This document shows, one piece after another, positions 4,503-5,533 of a stretch of DNA of 7,042 bases. Every line of letters starts with the position of its first letter. Position 1 is the stretch's first letter. The notes under the pieces were generated by a model. The model saw only the letters and a program-made list of their open reading frames with translations. It made no database searches and had not been told where the DNA came from. Source of the DNA: a virus (Duplodnaviria > Heunggongvirae > Uroviricota > Caudoviricetes); IMG/VR virus record IMGVR_UViG_2636416140_000004; one strand, given 5' to 3'. Made by a program: the position numbers and the translations under genes.

Positions 4503-4754
4503 GTGGATATAACCGTTTGTACTTATAAACCTGGAGGCATCGTGGAAAAAATAAAGAAACTATTTAGTAGCAAATACGCAGTCATACGTCGTGATGACCT
4601 GTCAGTTATAGTCGAAATGGATTACTTCCCTGAAACCCCAAAATCAATAATGTATCGTAATGGTCGAAAGGCAATTTTTTTACCGATGAGGGTAAGTGAC
4701 ATTATGGGAAATGATAAACTGCTGGATGAATTGCGAGTCAGAGCATCCTGTTAG
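4503..4754 (+). CDS. rem: Small prophage protein, Rem-like (83 aa); start codon uncertain
   Basis: 83-aa ORF from GTG 4503 lying between hok and a ydfU-like gene, as rem does in the K-12 Qin prophage. An in-frame GTG at 4542 has a better SD (GGAGG 4533..4537) and would give 70 aa. Confidence 0.45.
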   Translation: MDITVCTYKPGGIVEKIKKLFSSKYAVIRRDDLSVIVEMDYFPETPKSIMYRNGRKAIFLPMRVSDIMGNDKLLDELRVRASC

Positions 4755-4756
4755 TA
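4748..4756. repeat. IS1 target-site duplication, left copy (CTGTTAGTA)
   Basis: 9-bp sequence immediately left of the IS1 end, identical to 5525..5533; contains the native TAG stop of the rem-like ORF. Confidence 0.9.
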
Positions 4757-4771
4757 GGTAATGACTCCAAC

Positions 4772-5275
4772 TTACTGATAGTGTTTTATGTTCAGATAAT
4801 GCCCGATGACCTTGTCATGCAGCTCCACCGATTTTGAGAACGACAGTGACTTCCGTCCCAGCCTTGCCAGATGTTGTCTCAGATTCAGATTATGTCGCTC
4901 AATGCGCTGAGTGTAACGCTTGCTGATAACGTGCAGCTTTCCCTTCAGGCGTGATTCATACAGCGGCCAGCCATCCGTCATCCATACCACGACCTCAAAG
5001 GCCGACAGCAGGCTCAGAAGACGCTCCAGTGTGGCCAGAGTGCGTTCACCGAAGACGTGCGCCACAACCGTCCTCCGTATCCTGTCATACGCGTAAAACA
5101 GCCAGCGCTGACGTGATTTAGCACCGACGTAGCCCCAATGTTCGTCCATTTCAGCGCAGACAATCACATCACTGCCCGGTTGTATGCGCGAGGTTACCGA
5201 CTGCGGCCTGAGTTTTTTAAGTGACGTAAAACCGTGTTGAGGCCAACGCCCATAATGCGTGCACTGGCGCGACAT
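4772..5275 (-). CDS. insB: IS1 InsB (catalytic part, expressed as InsAB' fusion)
   Basis: 167-aa ORF with typical InsB sequence (...[22 protein letters not shown]...GWPLYESRL...). Confidence 0.9.
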
Positions 5276-5469
5276 CCGACGCCATTCATGGCCATATCAA
5301 TGATTTTCTGGTGCGTACCGGGCTGAGAGGCGGTGTAAGTGAACTGTAGTTGCCATGTTTTACGGCAATGAGAGCAGAGATAGCGCTGATGTCCGGCAGT
5401 GCTTTTGCCGTTACGCACCACGCCTTCAGTAGCGGAGCAGGAAGGACATCTGATGGAAATGGAAGCCAC
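5194..5469 (-). CDS. insA: IS1 InsA (zinc-finger/HTH transposition inhibitor)
   Basis: 91-aa [21 protein letters not shown]...CSHCRKTWQ with the Cys4 motif; GTG start as in IS1. Confidence 0.9.
5212..5218 (-). other. IS1 A6C programmed -1 frameshift site (A_AAA_AAC)
   Basis: Minus strand reads TTA AAA AAC (L-K-N of InsA). By frame arithmetic, a -1 slip enters the insB frame. Confidence 0.8.
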
Positions 5470-5524
5470 GCAAGCACCTTAAAATCACCATCATACACTA
5501 AATCAGTAAGTTGGCAGCATTACC

Positions 5525-5533
5525 CTGTTAGTA
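5525..5533. repeat. IS1 target-site duplication, right copy (CTGTTAGTA)
   Basis: Identical to 4748..4756. Confidence 0.9.

Follow-up and report, generated by a model that had tools for sequence, protein, structure and literature searches.

The window analysed here, a stretch of 7,042 bases, holds a complete 768-bp IS1 at 4757-5524, with the genes of the element on the minus strand. Our best explanation, to which we give a probability of about 0.9 as a whole, is that this copy entered a lambdoid prophage by simple transposition, that the insertion is ancestral to the Shigella flexneri lineage, and that it has been inherited vertically. The insertion is already present in published S. flexneri genomes and is a known kind of event, with nothing new in it. 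The features of the element and of the genes around it are collected in Table 1.

Table 1. The IS1 insertion and its neighbouring genes, in coordinates of the window.
Feature	Positions	Strand	Basis or remark
Upstream small ORF, 83 aa, GTG start	4503-4754	plus	phrog_1813, function unknown
Target-site duplication, left copy, CTGTTAGTA, 9 bp	4748-4756		holds the TAG of the upstream ORF
IRR, insB-distal inverted repeat	4757-4779		repeat search and alignment to K-12 IS1
insB' frame, uninterrupted, 167 codons counted from the listed ATG	4772-5275	minus	complete DDE_Tnp_IS1
insA, 91 aa, intact	5194-5469	minus	Zn_ribbon_InsA and HTH_Tnp_IS1 domains
A6C (AAAAAAC) motif of the programmed -1 frameshift, insA to insB'	5212-5218	minus	intact
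Promoter-like CTGCCA-16-TATGAT, partly within IRL, reading into insA	5490-5517	minus	consensus scan
IRL, insA-proximal inverted repeat	5502-5524		repeat search and alignment to K-12 IS1
Target-site duplication, right copy, CTGTTAGTA, 9 bp	5525-5533		directly abuts IS1
DUF1367 gene, irsA homologue; PHROG label NinB/Orf-like	5603-6202	plus	Pfam, full length
YbcO (DUF1364), putative nuclease gene	6202-6492	plus	Pfam/PHROG matches
Q-like antiterminator (DUF1133/Phage_antitermQ), truncated, 147 aa	6489-6932	plus	184 aa in relatives

The original prediction of a perfect 9-bp duplication around a complete IS1 was borne out. The 9-mer CTGTTAGTA occurs exactly twice in the window, the two copies are identical and both lie flush against the element, while none of 200 shuffles of the window held two copies by chance. 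The repeat tool itself returned a direct repeat of 10 nt (CCTGTTAGTA, 4747-4756 and 5524-5533); we counted the duplication as 9 bp because the extra C, at 5524, is the final base of the IS1 inverted repeat. Target duplications of IS1 are 8 or 9 bp long (PMC12428005). The terminal inverted repeats of 23 nt, GGTAATGACTCCAACTTACTGAT and ATCAGTAAGTTGGCAGCATTACC, match at 20 of their 23 positions, and the ends of the element begin with GGTAATG, which falls within the family pattern GGT(A/G)ATG. The position of the insertion was likewise as predicted, right after the stop codon of the upstream gene and 69 bp before the next start: the TAG at 4752-4754 lies inside the left copy of CTGTTAGTA, IS1 begins 2 bp past it, and 69 bp separate the right copy from the ATG at 5603. 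A target preference was considered and set aside; CTGTTAGTA matches the reverse complement of the inner IS1 repeat CTATCAGTA at 7 of 9 positions, and a rough estimate puts the chance of such a match anywhere in the two repeats at about 0.08.

The protein-coding content of the element is that of the IS1 family. The Pfam models were covered in full, with E-values of 5.9e-20 for the InsA zinc ribbon, 4.9e-30 for HTH_Tnp_IS1 and 1.1e-73 for DDE_Tnp_IS1, and the NCBIfam model transpos_IS1 scored 146 bits on the InsB' part against a cut-off of 100. Length, inverted repeats, the overlap of insA and insB' with its A6C motif, domains and the 9-bp duplication all agree with membership of this family. 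The copy keeps all frames and both ends intact, from which an ability to transpose can at most be predicted. The position of the promoter-like site that reads into insA fits that of the known IS1 promoter.

The element had also been described as a divergent isoform of IS1. This held insofar as its InsA differs from that of IS1A at 5 of 91 residues (86 identical), its InsB is identical to the IS1A protein at 151 of 167 residues (16 differences), and the whole element shows 91.02% nucleotide identity (69 differences) to K-12 IS1A. The description was nevertheless overstated, since the window copy is 99.22% identical (6 differences) to the catalogued K-12 IS1F, with InsA identical at 89 of 91 residues; both nucleotide alignments are colinear and gapless. 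For comparison, IS1F and the consensus IS1 are 90.5% identical (PMC12903888). IS1 copies at least 99% identical to that of the window were counted in 3,877 records of E. coli, three of which, among the matches listed, carry copies that are 100% identical. By its sequence the window element is of the IS1F type, a common and catalogued isoform ("type 4"), an assignment made by comparison with K-12 IS1A and IS1F. The K-12 IS1F copy (mobile_element 4518472-4519239, NC_000913.3) is likewise 768 bp long and has the same inverted repeats; its InsA carries two substitutions relative to that of the window, and its insB contains a TAG (annotated pseudogene; alignment column 542), whereas every frame of the window copy is open. 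IS1A/IS1E, the K-12 consensus close to IS1R of R100, shares with the window element its length, its organisation, its frameshift site and duplications of 8-9 bp. At window position 5138 (IS1 coordinate 387) InsB has His in all the IS1 copies at this site, and Gln in IS1A and K-12 IS1F, within the stretch EMDEQWGYVG.

The genes on either side of the element had been named rem and ydfU-like, and neither name could be kept. The upstream ORF, publicly annotated as 70 aa from an ATG at 4542, gave no BLASTP alignment to K-12 Rem (b1561) at E<=100; only position and length (83 aa) coincide with Rem, and at the DNA level the window can be followed along the K-12 Qin prophage no further than the terminator of hokD, near 4353. 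The downstream gene shows no similarity to K-12 YdfU (b1560; best BLASTP E = 27), its full-length Pfam match is DUF1367, its protein is 55% identical to Gifsy-2 STM1020, an irsA homologue, and its counterpart in a Rac phage record is named irsA. The genes flanking the IS1 are thus neither rem nor ydfU, and an annotation made by position is corrected. The expectation of ybcO and Q further downstream, in a nin/Q region, was confirmed: YbcO and Q-like genes follow the DUF1367 gene, and the three co-directional genes for DUF1367, the YbcO nuclease and a Q-type antiterminator are those of a lambdoid nin-to-Q early-right region. Intact relatives have the same order of DUF1367, YbcO and Q, followed by tRNA genes and lysis genes. 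On the other side of the small ORF lies a hok/sok type I toxin-antitoxin locus (3942-4353; Rfam sok, 118 bits at 3942-4116), with a hokD protein that shows no difference from its K-12 counterpart where the two align, and with a strong terminator at 4334-4353; this locus is the last stretch of the window that is homologous to K-12 Qin.

The origin of the insertion was examined through empty and occupied sites in related genomes. The two window flanks joined with a single CTGTTAGTA made a 1-kb query for the empty site, which was searched in complete E. coli genomes. This joined construct was covered to at least 80% in 170 complete E. coli genomes, with identity up to 98.9%. The empty site of E. 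coli VL40 reads GCATCCTGTTAGTATTGGCATT, with one CTGTTAGTA and both window flanks continuous, and two other E. coli loci (L023 and L025) are exact empty sites with a single CTGTTAGTA. The empty site that the original prediction had called for was therefore found, and the matching 9-mers, together with flanks that are contiguous at empty sites, upheld its view of a clean transposition and not a recombination scar. The occupied junction was found in 0 of the 5,426 complete E. coli genomes searched; two matches that listed an IS1 beside the DUF1367 gene were rejected, the IS1 lying in fact elsewhere in the prophage.

A scan of species-representative genomes with the 31-nt left junction returned two records, CP182556.1 (Shigella flexneri SFBU1023) and CP178302.1 (labelled E. 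coli ECMA0423, with a chromosome of 4.44 Mb). In both records the two 40-nt junctions are identical to those of the window, and both are colinear with window positions 2588-6931, a stretch that takes in the IS1; of its 4,344 bases 12 are mismatched, three within IS1. Ten further places were sampled as the loci returned for contigs that encode the upstream ORF. Both 40-nt junctions were as in the window at seven of the ten, among them CP000266.1 (S. flexneri 5b 8401); two of the remaining three were empty and one, CP054913.1, had the left junction only. In that record (L020, 3196-4060) the IS1 is followed by a manYZ/DUF986 region in place of CTGTTAGTA and the DUF1367 gene, the result of a later IS1-mediated rearrangement that used the IS1 at the same site. 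In all, at least nine genomes besides the window have an IS1 at precisely this base, and their two junctions are identical to those of the window. Between the IS1 copies at the shared site and that of the window there are 0-3 base differences, which is similar to the divergence of the flanks. Because the copies diverge about as much as the flanks do, we take the insertion to be an old, inherited one.

The small ORF and the gene from which the IS1 separates it invite comparison with Gifsy prophages, in which LexA controls an operon made up of dinI, irsA and, between them, the gene of a small antirepressor that starts with GUG (Lemire et al. 2011, PMC3121763). The window ORF precedes an irsA homologue, but the window lacks dinI and has hokD/sok upstream instead. 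A homologue of the ORF in Salmonella phage SPN3UB, gp59, lies between dinI and a DUF1367/irsA homologue (L027 2062-2740) in a module preceded by a terminator and by a LexA box that is perfect (TACTGTGTTTATATACAGTA), and the homologue in Citrobacter phage Chris1 follows dinI directly (L029 1762-2286), with no irsA homologue annotated nearby. Between 4354 and 4502, upstream of the window ORF, no LexA box was found, either as CTGT-N8-ACAG with at most one mismatch or as CTG-N10-CAG. The ORF family gave no BLASTP alignment to Gifsy-2 GftA, and hhalign returned a probability of 0.08; a weak match to phrog_340 is shared, with E = 4.7e-6 for SPN3UB gp59 and 0.23 for GftA. With GftA searches negative and no LexA box, the ORF was rejected as a homologue of the Gifsy antirepressors, GftA being the member compared. 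Searches of large databases with the ORF returned no more than 18 and 13 matches, a small family whose members are unnamed; two of them are labelled "bacteriocin" by their source without support. The AlphaFold model of the ORF had a mean pLDDT of 45, too poor for a fold search.

Two observations concern the neighbourhood of this ORF. The terminator hairpin AACCCGCTTCGGCGGGTTT ends hokD in the window (4334-4353) and precedes the LexA box/dinI module in SPN3UB (L027 2062-2082), and this common hairpin suggests a module boundary for cassette exchange among lambdoid phages. The record PP818812.1 (vB_Apl-pPE4, deposited as an Actinobacillus pleuropneumoniae phage) carries a region of hok, small ORF and DUF1367 that is 98.5% identical to the empty site. 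Such a region is unexpected in a phage of Pasteurellaceae, and the record may be an E. coli prophage contaminant or carry a mislabelled host.

As to transcription, the IS1 genes are antisense to the prophage operon, and transcription arriving from the upstream ORF would run through about 0.85 kb of untranslated RNA to reach the next start codon. IS1 is classically polar in both orientations, as known from work on gal and lac, and its polarity is relieved by rho mutations. The IS1-internal terminators that had been expected to meet transcription from upstream were not found: a scan of both strands predicted no intrinsic terminator-like site inside the element. Polarity, if any, would be Rho-dependent, because the IS1 is without a predicted intrinsic terminator. 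In the plus-strand RNA of 4940-5140, C is abundant and G scarce (C/G up to 1.8), a composition on which Rho could load, and Rho-mediated polarity on the DUF1367/irsA-like, ybcO and Q-like genes is plausible as read from the sequence. The RNA fold at the left junction (4740-4900) is not special (z = -0.78), and a weak AU/GU-rich hairpin formed at 4748-4781 by the duplicated target with IRR, and followed by UGUUUUAUGUU, was not relied on.

The original prediction that the insertion splits the nin/Q operon stood in part. The IS1 does lie in the region leading to Q, but the operon is already broken in the window strain, with a Q-like gene of 147 out of 184 aa and an IS600 upstream. The Q-like gene was truncated by a deletion, of 164 bp relative to strain 8401 and of about 1 kb relative to VL40. 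From 6932 onwards the window continues with DNA that in S. flexneri 8401 lies 53 bp past the end of an intact Q gene; in VL40 the distance is about 0.9 kb, and there this DNA stands just before the prophage tRNA genes; there is almost no microhomology at the deletion junction. On the other side, upstream of 2588, the prophage has given way to an IS600 (1324-2587), which is joined to a truncated chromosomal LysR gene. This complete IS600 links the LysR-family gene (888-1370), whose truncated frame is fused with the IS, to the 3'-terminal part of an HNH gene of the prophage (2588-2629). Because its flanks are unrelated, the IS600 junction was read as a rearrangement or deletion and not as a simple insertion. 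Two other strains (L007 and L008) have the same LysR-IS600 junction with different DNA on the far side. Window positions 1-31 are the IRL end of a further IS1 copy and match 5494-5524 exactly, and this IS1 truncates a hydrolase gene (31-750) to 239 aa, its length being 306 aa in assemblies without it. A polar effect of the insertion probably matters little in the window strain, given its shortened Q-like gene and the IS600 that cuts its prophage.

Several other explanations were weighed against simple transposition with vertical inheritance. The site could have arisen where two copies of IS1 recombined, or through faulty assembly of a draft contig. The window is the whole of contig ANAN01000163.1 (assembly GCA_000815945.1), which does open with the last 31 bases of another IS1, multicopy IS elements are rarely crossed by short-read assemblers, and the right flank of the IS1 at this very site has been exchanged in CP054913.1. 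A draft contig alone would be weak evidence, because the window starts inside another IS1 copy, and complete genomes remove this concern: identical junctions occur in several complete chromosomes. With the 9-bp repeats matching and the flanks contiguous in the empty sites, this explanation has next to no probability left, and for the window we regard it as already refuted. Another alternative leaves the transposition as it is and makes the insertion transcriptionally neutral, the irsA-like, ybcO and Q-like genes being driven by a promoter within the 78 bp that lead from IS1 to the start of the DUF1367 gene, or by read-out from IS1. An extended -10-like TGGTATACT, read by eye at 5547-5555, lies 47 bp before the ATG, which is itself preceded by a good GGAG ribosome-binding site; the TGGTATACT stretch is native, since it is identical in the VL40 empty site, and it is missing in the shorter spacer of phage SPN3UB. 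Against this, the consensus scan found no sigma-70-type plus-strand site in 5525-5603 and did not report TGGTATACT, the -35 region is poor, and the TTGGCA of IRL makes no hybrid promoter, as TAnnnT is lacking at the right spacing. We consider a neutral insertion unlikely.

Two further proposals give the insertion a larger role. It could have been retained because it is useful, uncoupling Q and the late regulators, locking the prophage in a harmless state (domestication) and hence becoming fixed in S. flexneri. Every examined S. flexneri-type place that still has the region is occupied, and the adjacent hok/sok module would help to keep the DNA in place; fixation is, however, just as much to be expected from drift in a lineage with bottlenecks and expanding IS elements (PMC7373316), and the other, independent lesions of the prophage vary between strains, suggesting decay without selection. 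Domestication thus seems improbable to us. We find it about as improbable that the phrog_1813 ORF belongs to an unrecognised family of small SOS-linked antirepressors, occupying the slot between dinI and irsA in Gifsy-like phages, from which the IS1 severed irsA, ybcO and Q, helping to lock the prophage. If this were true, the IS1 itself would still be ordinary and the novelty would lie in the gene family beside it. One thread is worth keeping, as a lead more than as a finding: the two genes parted by the IS1 correspond to antirepressor and irsA in the SOS-controlled operon of Gifsy prophages.

Simple transposition with vertical inheritance fits the known behaviour of the element. IS1 in general obtains its InsAB' transposase by -1 frameshifting, and a staggered cut of the target followed by gap repair leaves a direct repeat. 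Here InsAB' would have been produced by the -1 frameshift at the A6C motif, a step of which the footprint is what is seen in the window. A single IS1F-type element would have transposed into the 71-bp spacer between the phrog_1813 ORF and the DUF1367-irsA-like gene, in the early-right ("nin"-to-Q) part of a Rac/Gifsy-like lambdoid prophage, where it would have been joined to a 9-bp staggered cut at CTGTTAGTA and the gaps repaired into the direct repeat. The event would have taken place in an ancestor of the S. flexneri lineage, with vertical inheritance thereafter. The untranslated RNA antisense to the transposase may since expose read-through transcripts to Rho, and the irsA-like, ybcO and Q-like genes may be uncoupled from the upstream promoters.

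IS1 and IS600 have multiplied throughout Shigella, and the lineages of S. flexneri have about one third of their IS sites in common (Hawkey et al. 2020, PMC7373316). The window is one instance of this expansion and decay, with an IS1 and an IS600 within 7 kb, genes cut, and a site shared among S. flexneri, and the IS1 insertion would be one step in the IS-driven genome decay typical of Shigella. It is a textbook case of IS1 transposition in which the footprint, the empty site and the inherited occupied site are all documented, and the insertion is usable as a marker of the S. flexneri lineage.
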